Of a stretch of 64,000 bases of DNA, positions 8,436 to 62,041 are shown piece after piece. Source of the DNA: Ignavibacteriaceae bacterium. Its GTDB lineage: Bacteria > Bacteroidota > Ignavibacteria > Ignavibacteriales > Ignavibacteriaceae. The notes under the pieces are model-generated. The model made no database searches, was not told where the DNA came from, and saw only the letters and a list, made by a program, of their open reading frames with translations. A program made the position numbers and the translations under genes. The DNA lies in NCBI GenBank assembly GCA_036796535.1, contig DAIRCT010000005.1, positions 574-64,573 on the forward strand. The letters run 5' to 3'. The number at the start of each line of letters is the position of its first letter. Position 1 is the stretch's first letter.

Positions 8436-8498
8436 AAAATTAAAAATTAAAAATGCACAATTAACAATTGAGTGAACTAAATTACTTTTTAATCATCT

Positions 8499-8703
8499 GT
8501 CATCCTGAGCGAAGTCAAAGGATGACCTGAACTAAATTCAGTCACACTTCGACTGAGTTTATCCCGATTTGTATCGGGGCGCTGGGTGACGATAACAGTT
8601 TTGCATAATATCAATTAAAGATGAGACGTCATCTCCGAAGACGGGAGATGAAACAATATAGAAGTTCCTTAAATGGTTGCACTTCGTCAATACTTAGTGT
8701 GAC
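8499..8703. repeat. Cluster of intergenic hairpin/palindrome modules (GTCATCC...GGATGAC type)
   Basis: GTCATCC-N14-GGATGAC at 8499-8526. GTCAC...CCCGATttgtATCGGG...GTGAC at 8541-8590. CATCTCCgaagacgGGAGATG at 8630-8650. Long-range pair GTCACACT 8541-8548 / AGTGTGAC 8696-8703. Confidence 0.8.
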
Positions 8704-8743: not shown

Positions 8744-10003
8744 ATGAAAAAAATGTTTCTTGTTCTATTGTTGATGTTTGGATTTGCAATCCAAACTGCA
8801 TTCGCTACTGATGGCTATTATCGCCATGGTTATGGGATCAAATATTCAGCACTAGCAGGATCAGGTGTTGCTGTGTCATTAAGCTCACTTGGTGCAATTA
8901 CAAATCCTGCAGTAATATCCAATCTGAATTCTGGATTTGAAATTAACGTTTCATATTTCAGCCCGAACAGATATTATGAAGTATTTGGAAATCCAAGCGG
9001 CTTCCCCGGCACGTTTGGTTTAATGCCTGGTAAAGTTGAAAGTGAAAAAACATCTTTCTTCTTTCCATCAATAGGTGCAAACCTAAAATTAGCTGATAAT
9101 ATGGCAATAGGTTTATCAATTTATGGTAATGGTGGAATGAATTCTGATTATCCCACAAAAACATTCGGTGATCCCTTTTCACCTTCAACCGGTGTAAATA
9201 TCGAACAAATGTTCGGTAATCTTTCATTTGCGTATAATTTTGCTAATAACCAATCTTTTGGTGTTGCTGCAATTTTGGGCTGGCAAAGATTTGCTGCTAA
9301 AGGTTTAGTTGGATTTAGTAACTTTTCTGCTGATCCTGCAAATTTAACTGGCAATTCCTGGTCATCGGCTTTTGGGTTTGGGTTTAAGGTTGGCTATCAG
9401 GGGCAGTGGTTAAAGGATGTAAGATTCGGTGCTTCATATCAATCAAAATTATATATGGGTGAGTTTGAAAGATATGCAGGACTTTTTGCTCAGCAGGGAG
9501 ATTTTGATGTTCCAGCTAACTGGCAGGCTGGTTTTGCATTTACCCCCGGTGACTGGAAATTTTTAGTTGATGTAAAACAAATTCTTTACAGCGGAATAAA
9601 ATCGGTTGCTAATCCGCTATTGCCAAATTTAATGACTGCTAAACTTGGTACTGATGGCGGAGCAGGATTTGGTTGGAAAGATATTTTTATCTTTAAATAT
9701 GGAATGGTTTATTCAGGATTTTGTGGTTGGGATTTAATGGCAGGATATTCAATCGGTCAAAATCCAATTAGTGATACCGAAGTTCTTTTCAATATACTTG
9801 CCCCAGCAGTTATTGAAAACCAGTTGACTCTTGGTATAACAAAGAAATTAGCAAATAAACAAGAAGTAACAGTTGCATTTATGTATGCATTTGAAAATTC
9901 AGTAAAAGGAAAGAATCCATTAGAGGCACCCAATCAACAATCAATTGAGATTGGTATGAAGCAATGGCAGGTTGAAATTGGTTATGCTTTCGGTAGTTTC
10001 TAA
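8744..10003 (+). CDS. Outer-membrane beta-barrel channel, FadL/OmpP1/TodX-like (hydrophobic compound transport family)
   Basis: 419 aa. Signal peptide ends AFA. Mature N-terminus TDGYYRHGYGIKYSALAGSGVAV is typical of this family as I recall it. Alternating beta-strand pattern and C-terminal Phe. Confidence 0.6.
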   Translation: MKKMFLVLLLMFGFAIQTAFATDGYYRHGYGIKYSALAGSGVAVSLSSLGAITNPAVISNLNSGFEINVSYFSPNRYYEVFGNPSGFPGTFGLMPGKVESEKTSFFFPSIGANLKLADNMAIGLSIYGNGGMNSDYPTKTFGDPFSPSTGVNIEQMFGNLSFAYNFANNQSFGVAAILGWQRFAAKGLVGFSNFSADPANLTGNSWSSAFGFGFKVGYQGQWLKDVRFGASYQSKLYMGEFERYAGLFAQQGDFDVPANWQAGFAFTPGDWKFLVDVKQILYSGIKSVANPLLPNLMTAKLGTDGGAGFGWKDIFIFKYGMVYSGFCGWDLMAGYSIGQNPISDTEVLFNILAPAVIENQLTLGITKKLANKQEVTVAFMYAFENSVKGKNPLEAPNQQSIEIGMKQWQVEIGYAFGSF

Positions 10004-11657: not shown

Positions 11658-11765
11658 AATTTTTATTAACTGTTAATTCTATAAAATAACATTTTCATAT
11701 AATACGTATTTTTTAACATACCGGTCGAGTAAAAAAATATACGAAATATATAAGTAAACTTTTGG

Positions 11766-11792
11766 ATTCCTGCTTTTGCAGGAATGACATAC
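11766..11792. repeat. Short hairpin module ATTCCTGC-tttt-GCAGGAAT + TGACATACC (3' module of the structured repeat family); possible terminator for the minus-strand operon
   Basis: The stem-loop at 11766-11785 lies 12 nt beyond the stop of the 11797..12864 gene. The ATGACATACC end is identical to the end of the 14823-14918 element. Confidence 0.6.
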
Positions 11793-13404: not shown

Positions 13405-14808
13405 ATGTCGAATAAATATCAAATCGCTATTTTAGGCGGTGGTCCTGGAGGTTATGTTGCAGCTATAAGAGCAGCGCAATTAGGATTTAAAACCGTCATC
13501 ATTGATAAGGATAATTTAGGCGGAATTTGTTTGAATTGGGGCTGCATTCCAACAAAATCTCTTTTAAGAAATGTTGAGATTTTTGATAATGTTAAAACTC
13601 ATGGTAAAGAATTCGGGATCTATACAAAAGACCTTTCATTCAACTTTTCTGAGATAATAAAACGAAGCAGAGATATAGCTGATCGAATCAGTAAAAATGT
13701 TGAAATGCTTATTAAGAAAAATAAGGTTGATAGAATTCGTGGATTTGGTAAACTAATCAGTCAGAATGAAATTATTGTCCTAGATAAAGATGGTAAACAA
13801 ATTGAATCTGTCAATGCGGATAATATTATCATAGCTACAGGTGCCAGACCAAAAGTTTTTCCAAATATTCCCGTTGATAGAAAAAATATCATTACAAGTA
13901 CAGAGGCAATGTCTTTATCAGAGCAGCCAAAAGAAATGATTATCATAGGTGCTGGTGCAATCGGAATTGAGTTTGCATATTTCTATTCTGTGTTAGGGAC
14001 AAAAGTAACTGTTATAGAAATGCTTGATAATATTCTTCCTGTTGAAGATGTCGAAGTATCCAAAACACTGGAGAAAAGTTTTAAGAAGCGTGGAATCGAA
14101 ATCTACACTAAGACTATAGTTGAAAAAGCTGAAGTAAAAGAGAATAAAGTTTTGGTTACTATAAATCAAAATGGACAGAGAAAAGAATTAATTGCAGATA
14201 AAGTTTTAAGTGCAATTGGTGTAACAGGAAATGTTGAAGGATTTGGTTTGGAAGAATTGGGTGTTGAACTTTTCAAAAATCACATCAAGGTTGATAAGAA
14301 AACTTATCAGACAAATATTAAAAATATTTATGCAATAGGTGATGTGATTGGTCCGCCCTGGTTAGCACACGTAGCATCTGCAGAAGGAATACATTGTGTT
14401 GAAGGTATTAAAGGAATCAAAAATCCAGAAGTAGATTATGAAAATATTCCCGGCTGTACTTACTGCCAGCCGCAAGTTGCAAGCGTTGGATTAACTGAAT
14501 CAAAAGCAATCGAGCTTGGCTATGAATTGAAGATAGGTAAGTTTCCTTTTATGGCAAGCGGCAAAGCATTTGCAGTTGGTGAACGAGAAGGATTTGTTAA
14601 ATTGATTTTTGATGCAAAATATGGAGAGCTTCTCGGCGGTCATATTATTGGAAGTGAAGCAACAGAACTTATTGCTGAAGTGGTTTTAGCTAGAGCAATG
14701 GAAGCAACTGGGCATTCAATTATTAAAACAGTTCACGCTCATCCAACTTTATCTGAATCAGTTATGGAAGCTGCAGCAAATGCTTATGGTGAGGCAATAC
14801 ATATTTGA
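13405..14808 (+). CDS. lpdA: Dihydrolipoyl dehydrogenase (E3)
   Basis: 467 aa. GGGPGGYVAAIRAAQLG FAD fold, redox-active CLNWGCIPTK, C-terminal HAHPTLSE. Confidence 0.95.
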   Translation: MSNKYQIAILGGGPGGYVAAIRAAQLGFKTVIIDKDNLGGICLNWGCIPTKSLLRNVEIFDNVKTHGKEFGIYTKDLSFNFSEIIKRSRDIADRISKNVEMLIKKNKVDRIRGFGKLISQNEIIVLDKDGKQIESVNADNIIIATGARPKVFPNIPVDRKNIITSTEAMSLSEQPKEMIIIGAGAIGIEFAYFYSVLGTKVTVIEMLDNILPVEDVEVSKTLEKSFKKRGIEIYTKTIVEKAEVKENKVLVTINQNGQRKELIADKVLSAIGVTGNVEGFGLEELGVELFKNHIKVDKKTYQTNIKNIYAIGDVIGPPWLAHVASAEGIHCVEGIKGIKNPEVDYENIPGCTYCQPQVASVGLTESKAIELGYELKIGKFPFMASGKAFAVGEREGFVKLIFDAKYGELLGGHIIGSEATELIAEVVLARAMEATGHSIIKTVHAHPTLSESVMEAAANAYGEAIHI

Positions 14809-14822
14809 GTTTGACGTGAAAA

Positions 14823-14918
14823 CATCATTGCGAAGGATTCGCCGCGGCGAACTCGAGTGAAGCAATCTAAATTTATTTGGCAGATTGCTTCTCCCGATAA
14901 ATCGGGATCGCAATGACA
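14823..14918. repeat. Modular multi-palindromic intergenic repeat element (~95 bp), archetype copy
   Basis: Outer stem TCATTGCGA (14825-14833) / TCGCAATGA (14908-14916). Inner palindromes are TTCGCCGCGGCGAA, GAAGCAATCT-N13-AGATTGCTTC and CCCGATaaATCGGG. Confidence 0.9.
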
Positions 14919-14931
14919 TACCAAGAAGAAT

Positions 14932-15633
14932 ATGAATAAAGAACCAAGAAAATTAGTTTATTGTGATTTAGGTTTAATAGATTACAAAGAAGCATGGGAT
15001 TTGCAAAAATCTGTTCATCAACTTAAAACAGAAAATAAAATTGATGATGTACTTTTCTTGTTAGAACATCCACACACATACACTTTGGGTAAAACTGCGG
15101 ATAAAGAAAATCTTGTTGGTGGCGATGAATATTTAACTGAAAATAATATTTCTGTTTATGACATCGATCGGGGTGGAGATATAACTTATCACGGACCGGG
15201 ACAGATTGTTGGTTATCCGATAATTAGTTTGACAAATTGGAATCAGGATACACATAAATATTTAAGAGCTATCGAAGAAGTAATTATTAAAGTTTGTGAT
15301 GAATATGGTTTGGATGCAAGTCGTGTTGAAAAGTACACCGGCGTTTGGATCGCTGATAGAAAAATTTGTGCAATAGGAATTAAAGTTAGCAGATGGATTA
15401 CAATGCATGGCTTTGCATTTAATGTCAATACCGATCTGAAATTGTTTAAAGGAATTATTCCTTGTGGAATCAGTGATAAAGATGTTACATCATTAAATCT
15501 TGAATTGAAAAAAGAAATAAATTTAGGCGAAGTAAAAGAACGAATTCTTCATCAATTTAGTGTAATATTCAATTATGATCAGATAGAATTAATATCAAAA
15601 AATGAAATATTTAATCTAATTTATAATAGTTAA
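14932..15633 (+). CDS. lipB: Lipoyl(octanoyl) transferase
   Basis: 233 aa. Motifs LLEHPHTYTLGK, RGGDITYHGPGQIVGYP, KICAIGIKV. Confidence 0.9.
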   Translation: MNKEPRKLVYCDLGLIDYKEAWDLQKSVHQLKTENKIDDVLFLLEHPHTYTLGKTADKENLVGGDEYLTENNISVYDIDRGGDITYHGPGQIVGYPIISLTNWNQDTHKYLRAIEEVIIKVCDEYGLDASRVEKYTGVWIADRKICAIGIKVSRWITMHGFAFNVNTDLKLFKGIIPCGISDKDVTSLNLELKKEINLGEVKERILHQFSVIFNYDQIELISKNEIFNLIYNS

Positions 15634-15642
15634 TATATTTTT

Positions 15643-17748
15643 ATGTCGAAGAAAAACACATCAATACAAAATAAATCGAAGGAGAAAACTTCGGTGAGAC
15701 CATCAAACGGAAAAAATATTTCTATCAAAGCTGGTAGTAAAGAGTTTTCAAAAGATGAATTGCTTAATGCTCTTAAGATGATGCTTCGTGCCAGGAATGC
15801 AGATAACAAAGCTATGAACCTATTAAGGCAGGGAAAAACATTTTTTCATATTGCGGCGGCCGGACACGAGGCAGCTCAACTTGCAATAGGTTTATCTTTA
15901 AATCCAAAAAAAGATTGGCTATTTCCTTACTACCGTGATTTAGGCACAGTATTAACTTCGGGCATAACTCCGGAAGAAGTTTTTCTTGGCACATTTGGCA
16001 AAGCAACTGATCCGGCAAGCGGTGGTAGGCAACTGCCTGTGCATTGGGGTTCAACAAGGATTAATATCCCTTCGCAGTCCTCGCCAACGGGCACACAATT
16101 TTTACAGGCAGTTGGAACAGCATTAGCATCTGTAAAACGAGGTGAAAGAAATATTTCCTATGTTAGCAGCGGTGAAGGTACAACTTCGCAAGGGGAATTT
16201 CACGAAGCCGTTAACTGGGCAAGTCGCGAAAAACTTCCGGTATTATTTGTAATTCAAAATAATAAATATGCAATCTCCGTTCCTGTATCTTCCCAAAGTG
16301 GTGGTAAAAATCATTCAATAGCTGAAATGATGGCTGGATACAGCACACTATACAGAATAAGAATCGATGGTACAGATTTTTTTCAATCATATGAAAAAAT
16401 TCAGGAGGCAATTGAATATATAAAATCTGGTAAAGGTCCTGCGTTAATAGAAGCTGATGTTGTAAGATTAGAATCACATTCATCGTCAGATGATCAAAAA
16501 AAATATCGTGATAAAAAAGAACTTGAAGAAGATTTAAAAAATGATCCGATTGAAAAATTTGCTCAGATATTAATTGCAAAAGAATTTCTTACTCAAAATG
16601 ATTTTGATGAGTTGAAGAAAACTATAATTGATGAGATCAACCAAGCTGCTGATAAAGCATTCAATGCACCTGATCCAAAAAGGGATGAAGCTGTAAAATT
16701 TGTTTTTGATGAGAGCGGTTTTAAAGAAAGTTTAGATTATGAATCTTCAACTCCATCCGGTAATAAAATCGTAATGGTTGATGCAATCAATCATGCTTTG
16801 CACGAAGAGATGGAGAAAAATCCTGATATGTATATCTTTGGCGAAGATATTGAAGATGCAAAAGGCGGAGTATTTACTGCTACAAAAGGTTTATCAACCA
16901 GATTTACAAAAAAAAGAGTTTTCAATTCGCCACTTGCAGAAGCCAGTATTATGGGTGTTGCCGTTGGAATGGCTTTGACAGGCATGAAACCGGTTGTTGA
17001 AATCCAATTCGGTGATTATATCTGGCCCGCATTTCAGCAGATGAAAAATGAAATGGCACCTATGAGATATCGCTCAAATAATGCTTGGGCTGCACCTGTT
17101 GTAACTCGTGTTGCCGTTGGCGGATATATTCATGGCGGACTTTGCCATAGCCAAAATATCGAAGCATTCTTTTCTCATATTCCGGGAATTTTAATTGCTT
17201 ATCCAAGCAACGCTGCCGATGCAAAAGGTTTATTAAAAACTGCATGCCGAATAAAAGATCCGGTTTTATTTTTAGAGCACAAAGGATTATACAGACAAAG
17301 TTTTGCAATTACACCCGAGCCGGATGAAAATTATCTTTTGCCATTTGGTAAAGCTAAAGTTGTTAAAGAAGGAACAGATGTTACTGTTGTTTCGTGGGGA
17401 GTTTCGCTGTGGGATTCAATGCTTGCTGCAAAAAAATTAGAGGATGAAAATTTTTCCGTAGAGGTAATTGATTTAAGAACGATAGTTCCTTTAGATGAAG
17501 AAACAATTTATAACTCTGTTAAGAAAACAAATAAAGTAATTATAATTCACGAAGACACTTTGTTCAGTGGTTTTGGGGCTGAGATAGCGGCGCGGATTGC
17601 AGATAAATGTTTTCAATTTTTGGATGCACCGGTAAAAAGAATTGCAGCCAAAGATGCGCATATACCATATTCGCCGATACTAGAAAATGAAGTACTGCCA
17701 AGTCGTGATGGAATTTATAAAGGAATAAAAGATTTATTAATGTATTAA
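15643..17748 (+). CDS. 2-oxoacid dehydrogenase E1 component, fused alpha/beta subunits (branched-chain/pyruvate type)
   Basis: 701 aa. The N-terminal half has a TPP-binding alpha pattern (SGEGTTSQGEFHEAVNWA...VIQNNKYAIS). The C-terminal half is beta-like (IFGEDIEDAKGGVFTATKGL...NSPLAEASIMGVAVGMA). Confidence 0.9.
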   Translation: MSKKNTSIQNKSKEKTSVRPSNGKNISIKAGSKEFSKDELLNALKMMLRARNADNKAMNLLRQGKTFFHIAAAGHEAAQLAIGLSLNPKKDWLFPYYRDLGTVLTSGITPEEVFLGTFGKATDPASGGRQLPVHWGSTRINIPSQSSPTGTQFLQAVGTALASVKRGERNISYVSSGEGTTSQGEFHEAVNWASREKLPVLFVIQNNKYAISVPVSSQSGGKNHSIAEMMAGYSTLYRIRIDGTDFFQSYEKIQEAIEYIKSGKGPALIEADVVRLESHSSSDDQKKYRDKKELEEDLKNDPIEKFAQILIAKEFLTQNDFDELKKTIIDEINQAADKAFNAPDPKRDEAVKFVFDESGFKESLDYESSTPSGNKIVMVDAINHALHEEMEKNPDMYIFGEDIEDAKGGVFTATKGLSTRFTKKRVFNSPLAEASIMGVAVGMALTGMKPVVEIQFGDYIWPAFQQMKNEMAPMRYRSNNAWAAPVVTRVAVGGYIHGGLCHSQNIEAFFSHIPGILIAYPSNAADAKGLLKTACRIKDPVLFLEHKGLYRQSFAITPEPDENYLLPFGKAKVVKEGTDVTVVSWGVSLWDSMLAAKKLEDENFSVEVIDLRTIVPLDEETIYNSVKKTNKVIIIHEDTLFSGFGAEIAARIADKCFQFLDAPVKRIAAKDAHIPYSPILENEVLPSRDGIYKGIKDLLMY

Positions 17749-17761
17749 TCTTCGTGTCTTA

Positions 17762-17825
17762 GTGACTTGGTGGCAGAAAGAAATATGCCACAAAAACTCT
17801 AAGTCACAAAGAAGCACAAAAGAAT
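17762..17825. repeat. Imperfect long hairpin repeat (GTGACTT..GTGGCA-loop-GCCAC..AAGTCAC)
   Basis: Lies in the 213-bp gap between the E1 and E2 genes. Followed by the direct repeat ATTCATTATTC at 17894-17904 and 17908-17918. Confidence 0.55.
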
Positions 17826-17961
17826 ATCGAACAGGGAATGACTATTTAAGGATATTGAAGTTTTTATTTATTTGATTTATCACCTAATTAAAAATTCATT
17901 ATTCGATATTCATTATTCAAATAAAAAGATTAACAAATAGTTTTATAGTATAGGAGATTAT

Positions 17962-19686
17962 ATGGATATCATAATGCCGAAAATGGGTGAGAGTGTTAGT
18001 GAAGGCACTATAATAAAGTGGCACAAAAAAGTTGGTGATGCGGTTAAACAAGATGAAATAATTTTTGAAATCAGTACTGATAAAGTGGATACAGAAATTC
18101 CAGCATCAACATCCGGCATTCTAACTGAGATTTTAGTTAATGAGGGTGAGACTGTGGAAGTAGGAACCGTTGTTGCAAGAATAAACGCATCAAATTCTTC
18201 AAGTAATGAAACTGTTATTTCCAAGTCCGCCGCGGCGGATTCGACTGAGAAATCTTTACAAACCGATGCGAATAAGATTTCTCTCCCGATAAATCGGGAT
18301 CGAAATGACAATGCTATAACTTCAAAATCAGAAACATCAATCAAACAAAATGTTAAAGGAAACATAATTGAAATTACAATGCCCAAAATGGGTGAATCTG
18401 TTATGGAAGGTACGATTATTAAATGGCATAAAAAGGTCGGAGATGCAGTAAAGAAAGATGAAACAATTTTTGAGATCAGTACTGATAAAGTTGATACGGA
18501 AATTCCTTCACCCGAAGCGGGCACTTTAGCAGAAATACTTGTTGGTGAACAGGAAACTGTAGCAGTTGGAACAATCGTTGCAAAGCTTGCTGTTGGAAGT
18601 GATGTTAAAGTTTCCCAACAAGACAAGCAGGAAAAGGTTCAAGAACAAGTTCAGGTTCAGGTAGAAAAATCTATGCACGATAATTTTAACAGAAGTATTG
18701 ATCTGAATTCTTCAGAGAAGGGAAGTGGTTCAGGTTTTTATTCACCTTTGGTTTTAAGTATCGCACAAAAAGAAAATATAAGTTTTGAGGAATTACAATC
18801 AATCGAAGGAAGCGGATTGGAAGGAAGAGTTACTAAGAAAGATATTCTTGCTTATATAGAAAAAAGAAAAGACGTAAAAGTACAAGCTTCTGAAGCCGGA
18901 CAAGCTCAAGTTAAGAAAGAAGTTATATCTGCAACACCGGCATCGGCTTTTGTTCCATCCACATCTCAGACTGTTTATAATGAAGCAGATGTTGAAAAAA
19001 TTCCAATGGATAATATCCGTCAGAGAATTATGGATCATATGGTGCTTAGTCGTGATACTTCGGTTCACGTTACAGAACTGATTGAGGTTGATATGACAAG
19101 AATTCATAATTTTATTTCTGCAAAGAAAGATGAAATTATGAAAAATGAAAATGCTAAGTTAACTTATATGGCATTCATCGCTGATGCAGTTGTGAAAGCA
19201 TTAAAAAAATATCCGCTTGTAAATTCTAGTATCGATGGGAGTACAATACTTCAAAAGAAATTTATAAATCTTGGTATTGCTGTTGCTATTGAACCAAGTG
19301 GTTTAATTGTTCCAAACATTAAAGGGGCAGGGGATAGAAATGTAATCGGTCTTGCAAAAGCAATTGCCGATCTTGCAAATCGTTCACGAACAAAAAAACT
19401 TACTCCGGATGATATTAGTAACGGAACATTTACAATTACAAATTATGGTGTATTCGGAACTATATTTGGGACACCAATAATTAATCAACCTGAAGTTGCA
19501 ATACTTGGAGTTGGAGCAGTACAGAAGAAACCCGTAGTGATTGAAGTGGATGGCTCCGATACATTTGCAGTAAGACACATTATGGCATTAACACTTTCAC
19601 ACGATCATCGTTTGGTTGATGGTATGCTTGGTGGATTGTTTTTAAAGAGTATTAAAGAAACTTTAGAAAATTTTGAAGGAATATAG
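17962..19686 (+). CDS. Dihydrolipoamide acyltransferase (E2) with two N-terminal lipoyl domains
   Basis: 574 aa. AGGAG lies 5 nt upstream of the ATG. Two lipoyl domains each carry EISTDKVDTEIP. Subunit-binding region SPLVLSIAQKENISFEELQSIEGSGLEGRVTKKDI. Catalytic LSHDHRLVDG. Confidence 0.95.
   Translation: MDIIMPKMGESVSEGTIIKWHKKVGDAVKQDEIIFEISTDKVDTEIPASTSGILTEILVNEGETVEVGTVVARINASNSSSNETVISKSAAADSTEKSLQTDANKISLPINRDRNDNAITSKSETSIKQNVKGNIIEITMPKMGESVMEGTIIKWHKKVGDAVKKDETIFEISTDKVDTEIPSPEAGTLAEILVGEQETVAVGTIVAKLAVGSDVKVSQQDKQEKVQEQVQVQVEKSMHDNFNRSIDLNSSEKGSGSGFYSPLVLSIAQKENISFEELQSIEGSGLEGRVTKKDILAYIEKRKDVKVQASEAGQAQVKKEVISATPASAFVPSTSQTVYNEADVEKIPMDNIRQRIMDHMVLSRDTSVHVTELIEVDMTRIHNFISAKKDEIMKNENAKLTYMAFIADAVVKALKKYPLVNSSIDGSTILQKKFINLGIAVAIEPSGLIVPNIKGAGDRNVIGLAKAIADLANRSRTKKLTPDDISNGTFTITNYGVFGTIFGTPIINQPEVAILGVGAVQKKPVVIEVDGSDTFAVRHIMALTLSHDHRLVDGMLGGLFLKSIKETLENFEGI
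18213..18310. repeat. Copy of the modular multi-palindromic repeat element embedded in frame in the E2 inter-lipoyl-domain linker
   Basis: Module-by-module match to 14823-14918: TCCGCCGCGGCGGA (18226-18239), GAGAAATCT-N19-AGATTTCTC (18247-18283), identical TCCCGATAAATCGGGA (18284-18299), TCGAAATGACA (18300-18310). The degenerate left arm TGTTATTTCCA (18213-18223) pairs with the right arm. Confidence 0.85.
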
Positions 19687-19693
19687 AATAAAA

Positions 19694-19752
19694 ATCGTAG
19701 AACAGACTTTAGTCTGTTAATTGCTCAGAATGAATTCTGAACTACGAGAATA
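19694..19752. repeat. REP-like double hairpin related to the 1973-2212 tandem unit
   Basis: cgtagaaCAGACtttaGTCTGtt plus tCAGAAtgaaTTCTGaactacgagaat. Same hairpin cores and the same CTACGA(A/G)AAT tail as the tandem repeat. Lies just after the E2 stop. Confidence 0.75.
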
Positions 19753-25166: not shown

Positions 25167-25197
25167 GGTGTAAAGGGTTTATCTCAAGAGTAAATTT

Positions 25198-25294
25198 GTC
25201 ATCACGAGTCCCGACGTGTCGGGACGAAGTGATCTCAATTAAACTTTAAATTTGAAAGATTACTTCTCCCAACTTTATCGGGATCGCATTGACA
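25198..25294. repeat. Third full copy of the modular multi-palindromic repeat element
   Basis: GTCATCACGAG | TCCCGACgtGTCGGGA | GAAGTGATC...GATTACTTC | TCCCAACTTTATCGGGA | TCGCATTGACA. Same module order as 14823-14918. Confidence 0.8.
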
Positions 25295-61724: not shown

Positions 61725-61880
61725 AATCTATAAATTTTTTATTGCAAGTTAGAAGTAAAACATCTTTTTAGCAACTTTAGAATGCATGATTGTATGGATG
61801 CATGGTTAAGAGATATAAATTTATTTTTTCACCCATTCATTCTTGCAGTCATTCATGCATGCAACCAATCTTTGATATAA

Positions 61881-62020
61881 TAAGTCACCTTACTTAGTTG
61901 TCATGCTGTTCGCCGGGGCGAATCATTTCAGCATCTCAATGTCAAAGGGAACACAGATTCTGAAACAAGTTCAGAATGACAATTAGTGTTTTTTCCATAT
62001 TTTCTGCGTAAGGTGACTTA
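61881..62020. mobile_element. 140-bp MITE-like non-autonomous element with perfect 13-bp terminal inverted repeats enclosing a structured-repeat core
   Basis: TAAGTCACCTTAC at 61881-61893 and its exact reverse complement GTAAGGTGACTTA at 62008-62020. ATAA is present on both flanks. The core contains GTCATGCTG, TTCGCCGGGGCGAA and ATTCTGAAacaagTTCAGAAT, ending TGACA. No coding capacity. Confidence 0.6.
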
Positions 62021-62041
62021 ATAAAATTTCATTCACAAATT

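Follow-up and report, generated by a model that had tools for sequence, protein, structure and literature searches.

The DNA analysed here is a 64-kb window (the whole stretch under study, from an Ignavibacteria metagenome-assembled genome), together with related loci of ±10 kb (L numbers) and proteins (P numbers). The window carries a 2-oxoacid dehydrogenase operon made up of lpdA, lipB, E1, E2 and lipA, and the element that concerns us lies inside the E2 gene, which encodes a dihydrolipoamide acyltransferase. The open reading frame (ORF) at 17962-19686 (+ strand; ORF list and Pfam), 574 aa in length, is an intact two-lipoyl-domain E2 in which lipoyl, E3-binding and catalytic domains are all present. 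Pfam assigns two Biotin_lipoyl domains (best stretch aa 2-74), E3_binding at aa 259-296 and 2-oxoacid_dh at aa 343-572, and the strands of the second lipoyl domain are predicted from about aa 134. The motifs around the insert are intact in the translation, with the lipoyl-lysine motif TDKVD present twice and SHDHRLVDG (DHRxxDG type) once. We scored 8000 E2 homologues, and those with names were Ignavibacteria.

The two lipoyl domains are separated by 65 residues (aa 75-139). Within this linker, 18213-18310 (+ strand) is an in-frame copy of the same modular palindromic element that occupies the lpdA-lipB spacer at 14823-14918 (+ strand). We describe both as dimers of repetitive extragenic palindromes (REPs): the intergenic dimer has the core ATTGC/GCAAT, a 13-nt spacer and the tips TTCGCCGCGGCGAA and TCCCGATAAATCGGGA, and the dimer in E2, recognised by alignment, folding and its orthologous copies, encodes aa 85-117 (VISKSAAADSTEKSLQTDANKISLPINRDRNDN). 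A sequence-only reading of this DNA had proposed that the intergenic element reappears module by module in E2, and all of its modules were found when both regions were read directly and then aligned. The GC hairpin TTCGCCGCGGCGAA (14838-14851) corresponds to TCCGCCGCGGCGGA (18226-18239), with both arms altered and the palindrome preserved. The central arms GAAGCAATCT-N13-AGATTGCTTC (14859-14891) correspond to GAGAAATCT-N19-AGATTTCTC (18247-18283), and the right ends are TCGCAATGACA (14908-14918) and TCGAAATGACA (18300-18310). The 16-mer TCCCGATAAATCGGGA is identical at 14892-14907 and 18284-18299, with no third exact copy within the window, and the left arm of the E2 copy, starting at 18213, is a degenerate TGTTATTTCCA.

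The two copies share a 29-nt block with 28/29 identity (blastn-short, E=6e-9), and their full-length Smith-Waterman score was 61, against 13.8±2.2 for shuffles (max 29; z≈21) and a best score of 30 against 3000 other pieces of the window. Folded as RNA, the E2 copy reached -36.8 kcal/mol (z=-5.2), and the intergenic copy folded at -39 kcal/mol (z=-5.0). Chance resemblance, an ancestral linker sequence or an assembly chimera is an extremely improbable explanation given the alignment score, the presence of the family in many loci and the occurrence of the same structure in 10 independent assemblies. Furthermore, among the E2 orthologues compared, the element was absent from those of more distant Ignavibacteria and of other phyla. 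The assembly artefact that the earlier reading wished to exclude is likewise contradicted by an identical protein in 4 contigs and by 9 further independent assemblies in which this site holds the element.

The E2 ORF stays open through the element, and among the three + strand frames the E2 frame alone is without stops. The encoded peptide falls in the stretch that separates lipoyl domain 1 (aa 2-74) from lipoyl domain 2 (about aa 134 onwards) and supplies 33 of the 65 linker residues, so that over half of the inter-lipoyl linker is repeat-derived, as had been proposed. These 33 residues are hydrophilic and probably disordered. In an AlphaFold model, aa 81-130 had the lowest confidence (pLDDT 26-29) and no secondary structure; the overall confidence of the model was low (mean pLDDT 49.5), and we used it solely as weak support for linker disorder.

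Structure of the repeat dimer

All copies share a common design, in which a (C/T)GTC tag and a CT tail enclose a 5-bp stem (AT-NN-C complementary to G-NN-AT) with a GC-rich tip, and two such units face each other with their tags outward. In E2, unit 1 (18213-18255, + strand) comprises the degenerate tag TGTT (consensus TGTC), the 5' stem arm ATTTC at 18217-18221, the tip TCCGCCGCGGCGGA at 18226-18239, the 3' stem arm GAAAT at 18249-18253 and the tail CT; in E2 orthologues the tag and stem of this unit are intact (GTCATTTCGAAG). A 19-nt spacer (18256-18274, + strand) encodes LQTDAN plus the first base of the following codon. Unit 2 (18275-18310, + strand) is inverted and reads AG, the 5' stem arm ATTTC, TC, the tip TCCCGATAAATCGGGA at 18284-18299, TCGAAAT (which holds the 3' stem arm GAAAT) and the inverted tag GACA.

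Across all fetched DNA, the variable dinucleotide of the stem was complementary in 285 of 366 candidate stem pairs, against about 23 expected, and 10 complementary types were represented. Without the TT/AA type, which the search pattern itself had selected, 102 of 183 stem pairs were still complementary. In the same DNA, 69 dimers (40 of them heterodimers) had their tags outward and 14 had them inward. The complementarity within units across 10 types, together with this orientation bias, indicates that pairing occurs within units. The earlier reading had the degenerate left arm of the E2 copy pairing with its right arm; the arms are indeed present, but covariation favours stems within each unit and not primarily a pairing of the outer arms. 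From its arrangement, the element reads as a REPIN-like dimer whose two REP units bear outward-facing (C/T)GTC tags.

We also considered a cloverleaf (four-way junction) as the functional structure and downgraded it, since covariation and the frequency of heterodimers favour within-unit hairpins. The cloverleaf is predicted for both copies in the window, which can form it solely because both are homodimers.

In many units from metagenome loci (L092-L171), tandem G·A mismatches flank a GCGAAGC tip (ATTTC-GA-GCGAAGC-GA-GAAAT). The oligonucleotide d(GCGAAGC) has been described as an unusually stable DNA mini-hairpin, and a stable tip of this kind would fit a single-stranded-DNA stage of these repeats.

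Linker alleles and conservation in E2 orthologues

The element-derived peptide was clear in 46 of the 120 closest E2 homologues (72-100% identity) and degenerate in about 7, and the remainder had a linker rich in Ala, Pro, Val, Glu and Lys. The median length of the linker window (aa 70-140 region) was 74 aa in carriers vs 56 aa in non-carriers. The check on orthologues that the earlier reading had called for thus finds many close E2 proteins without the ~33-aa segment and with a conventional linker in its place. However, the insertion that this reading inferred stands only in part: the segment is missing from many orthologues, but the two kinds of linker differ along their full length and do not show a clean presence or absence.

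At the DNA level, the same element occupies the same E2 site in the window, L081-84, L086-88 and L090, and a degenerate copy is present in L212 (ten assemblies in all). The segment-wise analysis used nine copies, the L212 copy being omitted as too decayed; the operon spacers of L212 hold no copies of the family. All nine have the core ATTTC/GAAAT and a spacer of exactly 19 nt that can be aligned, in contrast to intergenic copies, whose spacers range from 12 to 26 nt and are unrelated in sequence. The shared site, core and alignable spacer point to one origin and argue for a single arrival in the ancestor of an Ignavibacteriaceae group.

Carriers and non-carriers are interleaved on a tree of the structured domains, and protein pairs with 99-100% identical catalytic domains differ in carriage of the element; the catalytic domains of P0026 and P0088 are 100% identical, yet one protein has the element and the other does not. 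Loci L088 and L089 (JGI samples 3300036987 and 3300037286) have flanks that are 99-100% identical and E1-E2 surroundings that are 92-97% identical, but linker 1 is entirely different. The two linkers therefore behave as alleles, and, as these near-identical loci show, homologous recombination carries both of them from one closely related lineage to another. A simple insertion/deletion model was discarded, as the two linker alleles are unalignable along their full length; for the same reason, a clean empty site with target duplication is not demonstrable.

The E1-E2 spacer (window 17749-17961 and L081-L087) also exists in two unrelated forms. The first, of ~130 nt, is found in L081-L084 and contains a degenerate palindrome with the end ...CGATATGACA; the second, of ~195-234 nt, is found in the window, L085 and L087. 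Taken with the linker alleles, these spacer forms suggest mosaic recombination over the operon.

The interleaving of carriers and non-carriers could also be read as an E2 linker that is a hot spot invaded several times by different REP dimers. Tips vary among the orthologues, as independent insertions would predict, and in the P0017/P0047 clade the element follows a retained native 'AKEEPK' stretch, a junction unlike that in the window's clade. However, the E2 copies all have the ATTTC/GAAAT core whatever the core type of the neighbouring intergenic copies, the 19-nt spacer can be aligned between clades (ttacaaaccgatgcgaata vs gaacaatctgaaaccaata), and recombination between near-identical genomes is observed directly. 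We consider repeated insertion quite improbable for these reasons.

The REP cores are conserved at the nucleotide level inside the ORF. Over nine sequences and 43 core sites, nucleotide diversity (π) was 0.067 in the four core segments, compared with 0.456 in the 19-nt spacer and 0.46-0.51 in the 30 nt of linker on either side, a flanking value that unaligned indels have possibly inflated. Third codon positions gave π of 0.104 within the cores (n=15) and 0.376 in the lipoyl domains (n=140), and 0 of 20000 resamplings of 15 lipoyl third positions were as low as the core value. The spacer and adjoining linker evolve near-neutrally, at roughly the synonymous rate. These rates bear on a protein-level function, in which selection would act on the peptide itself (VISK..EKS..KIS..RNDN), for instance as a motif for interaction or regulation within the swinging arm. 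Across carriers, the core-encoded residues are indeed conserved and the remaining linker is variable, as such a function would require. However, the conserved third positions (π 0.10 vs 0.38) are not predicted by selection on the peptide alone, the residues that are conserved are exactly those of the REP stems, disorder is predicted for the region, and many orthologues have no such peptide. A function of the peptide is accordingly a very improbable account of the conservation.

The tips behave differently from the cores. Tip slots measure 12, 21, 33 or 42 nt on the left and 7, 16 or 37 nt on the right, and all differences are multiples of 3. On the left, the slot is empty or filled by TCCGCCGCGGCGGA, TCCCGAAAGYTTTCGGGA, two hairpins or other inserts; on the right, it is empty or filled by TCCCGATAAATCGGGA or by the TCCCGATAAATCGGGA hairpin with a nested one. 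The right tip is absent (CCTCTGG-type) in L083, L084, L086 and L088, and L087 has the nested extra hairpin. Orthologous intergenic copies swap tips too, with identical cores and spacer (e.g., CCCCGATGAATCGGGG vs CCGACTGAAGTCGG).

The lpdA-lipB spacers (window 14809-14931, L082-L086, L088, L089, L091 and L036), whose copies with other tips are orthologous to 14823-14918, keep the cores and often the spacer, and their GC tips are replaced wholesale. The tip TTCGCCNNGGCGAA belongs to the left unit in the window and to the right unit in L085, with changes symmetric across both arms. Symmetric replacement of this kind points to correction templated by the palindrome itself, or to short-patch conversion by other copies.

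The main rival to a tolerated insert is structural selection, that is, exaptation of a nucleic-acid element whose DNA or RNA structure is selected and whose peptide is a by-product; the possible roles would include ribosome pausing between the lipoyl domains, stabilising or processing of the mRNA, and binding of a REP-recognising protein. It is favoured by cores far more conserved than the neighbouring linker and than lipoyl third positions, by the folding of both window copies far better than shuffles, and by other copies in the same orientation in spacers of the same operon. Moreover, Di Nocera, De Gregorio and Rocco (2013; PMC3733652) make a case for many REPs working as RNA elements. On the other hand, about half of the close orthologues are without the element, very close relatives differ in carriage, and several lineages have let one unit decay. 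No Rfam family matched at gathering thresholds over the whole window, nor at E≤1 over 14700-18500, and gene conversion with other REP copies or palindrome-templated repair would explain the conservation equally well. On balance, we regard exaptation as unlikely, while giving it more weight than any other alternative.

Other copies of the repeat family

At least 7 tagged units or dimers of the family occur in the window. An intergenic dimer at 25197-25294 (+ strand) consists of TGTCATCACGA, the tip TCCCGACGTGTCGGGA, internal sequence, a second tip hairpin and TCGCATTGACA; its folding z was -5.6 on the + strand and -6.8 on the - strand. An intergenic heterodimer at 61899-61981 (+ strand) has as unit 1 TGTC ATGCTG TTCGCCGGGGCGAA ... 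CAGCAT and as unit 2 AG ATTCTGAA ACAAG TTCAGAAT GACA, the latter with an 8-bp stem and a 5-nt loop. A single canonical unit at 11763-11789 (- strand) reads TGTC ATTCCTGC AAAA GCAGGAAT CCA, with an 8-bp stem starting from AT, a 4-nt loop and a CCA tail, and two tagged units, TGTCATCCTGAGCGAAGTCAAAGGATGAC (8498-8527) and CGTCATCTCCGAAGACGGGAGATGA (8627-8651), share one intergenic spacer at 8498-8651 (+ strand). In addition, intergenic spacers of the E2 operon itself hold related copies, both in the window and across at least 15 related genomes; many Ignavibacteria loci have them in the lpdA-lipB and E2-lipA spacers.

The heterodimer at 61899-61981 is bracketed by a 16-nt inverted repeat, TAATAAGTCACCTTAC / GTAAGGTGACTTAATA (61878-61893 / 62008-62023, 94% complementary), and possibly represents an insertion nested within a different palindrome.

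When metagenomes were scanned for one unit type, it was present on at least 120 stretches, in contigs of every GC content, and about 9 of the 95 matches listed lay within long open frames. No E2 copies were found among the matches listed, because the unit is so common that unrelated intergenic copies dominate. A (C/T)GTC-tagged repeat of this kind is widespread in environmental bacteria, and the family is mainly intergenic. A strict inverted-repeat scan missed known copies, and a 10-mer scan with one mismatch gave mostly chance matches, so that both were uninformative. In the full text of the literature, the terminal 10-mers matched only primers and unrelated sequences, and a keyword search on Ignavibacteria repeats found nothing specific.

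The unit AGATTTCTC..TCGAAATGACA also occurs on 60 stretches from IMG/VR (L213-L272, e.g., L234, L235 and L252), with up to 7 copies per stretch. These contigs are classed as viral, and may come from true phage, from prophage flanks or from cellular DNA that was misclassified.

A second palindrome family, with a GTAG-type tag, was observed in the window at 1972-2210 and 19695-19750 and in the E2-lipA spacers of L081-L084 and L088-L091. It includes an array (...CGCAGACTGAAGTCTGCGCTAC... / CTCAGACTTTAGTCTGAG) with a period of ~88 nt and a composite, CGTAGAACAGACTTTAGTCTGTT..CTCAGAATGAATTCTGA.CTACG, that directly follows the E2 stop codon. In L083, the second hairpin loop of this composite contains the TCCGCCGCGACGGA tip, as in the E2 element.

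Single REP-like units were also seen in frame in a different protein context, namely the loop between the first two strands (β1-β2) of the C-terminal sorting domains of the type IX secretion system (T9SS) in Ignavibacteria. Examples are L031 ~144-172, L004 ~9802-9830 and the proteins P0121-P0144 (e.g., ...IKFTIPSVIASEAKQSQIVTLKVYD...). Out of 100 T9SS domains with both anchor motifs, 76 had the canonical 15-aa spacing and about 20 had 20-24 aa, a proportion that is biased since the query carried the insert. The extra residues resemble several REP types (VIASxxKQS, VISNEERSL, VTLSGVEGS, VETHRDASL and QARNDN). Since many of the matches are short ORFs and a stop lies just upstream in the case of the L004 gene, pseudogenes may be among them.

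Proposed history and comparison with known systems

We consider it likely that a non-autonomous REP dimer entered linker 1 of E2, is translated as a tolerated passenger and persists as a linker allele. The dimer would have landed in, or recombined into, the sequence-tolerant inter-lipoyl tether of an Ignavibacteriaceae ancestor, in the sole + strand frame without stop codons, and would have been read as a 33-residue peptide. The tether presumably tolerates this peptide because it needs length and flexibility and not a particular sequence. The element-bearing linker would then have persisted as one of two alleles, the other being the ordinary Ala/Pro/Val/Glu/Lys linker. Within the ORF the element still seems to behave as a REP, with cores kept, a drifting spacer, and GC tips gained, lost and exchanged as cassettes; tip changes in multiples of three would be expected if selection removes frame-breaking changes. 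Candidate causes of the core conservation are selection on DNA or RNA structure, concerted evolution or gene conversion with genomic REPs, and palindrome-templated repair. More tentatively, and with rather less than even probability in our judgement, this coding stretch may be ruled by its repeat family, with cores actively maintained, tips serving as in-frame cassettes and the linker acting as a recombining allele.

Several points weigh against an inserted and tolerated passenger. There is no clean empty site, the insertion boundaries are invisible, and the word insertion follows from membership in the family. The conservation of the cores, third positions included, shows that the element is no purely neutral passenger, and the rate comparison draws on nine sequences with 43 core sites. 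In some lineages one unit decays, the right one in L084 and the left one in L212. Translation of the segment is deduced from an intact ORF conserved in dozens of orthologues. Finally, no transposase, RAYT (REP-associated tyrosine transposase) or other, turned up, although no search aimed at one was made.

In-frame palindromic repeats are already established, as Rickettsia palindromic elements (RPEs), as REPs in several phyla and as REP dimers in E2. The closest known match to the element described here appears to be the CGTC/TGTC-tagged REP superfamily that Di Nocera et al. (PMC3733652) reported in Chlorobi and Bacteroidetes, from a genome list that does not include Ignavibacteria. REPs of this superfamily have an unpaired CGTC tag (TGTC and CCTC are also allowed) at one end, a stem of 8-9 bp starting from A-T, a 4-5-nt loop and a tail that is mostly CCA. 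They are multi-copy and largely intergenic, usually paired as inverted dimers with 20-100-bp spacers, among which heterodimers are common; the occasional intragenic inserts are mostly dimers that encode 20-30 aa (PMC3733652). The E2-type units share the tag (TGTC or AGTC before ATTTC in E2 orthologues, TGTT in the window, CGTC or TGTC in intergenic copies), the stem starting from A-T (AT-NN-C / G-NN-AT) with a GC-rich distal part, and the multi-copy, mostly extragenic distribution with mainly one kind of inverted dimer (69 outward vs 14 inward). However, E2 units have an AT-rich stem of 5 bp, followed by an internal loop and by a distinct GC hairpin tip that is exchangeable, in place of the 8-9-bp stem, which is found in the unit at 11763-11789 and in unit 2 of 61899-61981. 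Their short tail is CT(C/T) where the superfamily mostly has CCA, the tail of the unit at 11763-11789, which fits the description of CGTC family 1 (PMC3733652) fully. The E2-type units would be a variant of the CGTC/TGTC REPs in which the stem is short and the tip forms a hairpin of its own.

Compared with REPINs, in which two inverted REPs and a short spacer form a doublet that is the repeated unit in place of the single REP (Bertels and Rainey 2011, PMC3116915; PMC3337134), the E2 element has the same inverted pair and short spacer. However, REPINs have GTAG-type REPs tied to a RAYT transposase (Y1) and the E2 element has a (C/T)GTC tag, its covariation favours within-unit hairpins over a single long hairpin, and heterodimers are frequent in its family. 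Miniature inverted-repeat transposable elements have terminal inverted repeats, a target-site duplication and a related autonomous IS. In the present family the outer tags and stems serve as such terminal repeats, and no direct flanking repeats were seen by eye at 14823-14918, 25197-25294 or L004 6424-6516.

The sequence-only reading named the RPEs as the closest known precedent. The comparison is apt, as RPEs are palindromic repeats in frame in many Rickettsia genes whose peptides are tolerated at positions compatible with the fold (PMC10969869), and RPE-4 and RPE-6 are classed as CGTC REPs (PMC3733652). The likeness is one of behaviour, an in-frame palindromic insert, and of the CGTC tag of RPE-4 and RPE-6, and the comparison is by description and not by sequence. 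Unlike the E2 element, which coexists with an element-free allele in a free-living lineage, RPEs reside in an obligate intracellular alphaproteobacterium, and those of the RPE-1 type measure ~150 bp. A nearer precedent, however, is found in Opitutus terrae, in which two E2 genes contain in-frame GTAG-17 REP dimers: Oter_4191 (2-oxoglutarate dehydrogenase E2) at aa 190-204 and Oter_4192 (dihydrolipoamide acetyltransferase) at aa 127-142 (PMC3733652, supplementary file 4). As in our case, a REP dimer is read in frame within a dihydrolipoamide acyltransferase gene, and judging from their position and Ala/Pro/Gly-rich peptide, these inserts presumably lie in inter-domain linkers. They differ in belonging to the GTAG superfamily, in being from Verrucomicrobia and in encoding 15-16 aa, and they are known from a table entry, without analysis of alleles, conservation or tip exchange.

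The Ignavibacteriaceae element is another case of E2 inter-domain linkers tolerating almost any hydrophilic sequence, and it extends in-frame insertions of the REP/RPE type to Ignavibacteria and to a very widespread TGTC-tagged repeat. Annotators should recognise such segments, which appear in protein databases as odd low-complexity peptides. If the coding stretch is indeed ruled by its repeat family and the T9SS inserts are of the same kind, Ignavibacteria would be a free-living counterpart of the Rickettsia RPE phenomenon and a natural system for studying how REPs are maintained. With both alleles in near-identical genomes and dozens of orthologous copies, the E2 linker offers an unusually clean natural comparison that lets the constraints of the repeat (cores and tip exchange) be separated from those of the protein. 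In relation to the Rickettsia and Opitutus terrae precedents, what is new here is the phylum, the REP variant, the recombining allelic polymorphism, the measured nucleotide conservation within an ORF and the cassette-like exchange of tips.

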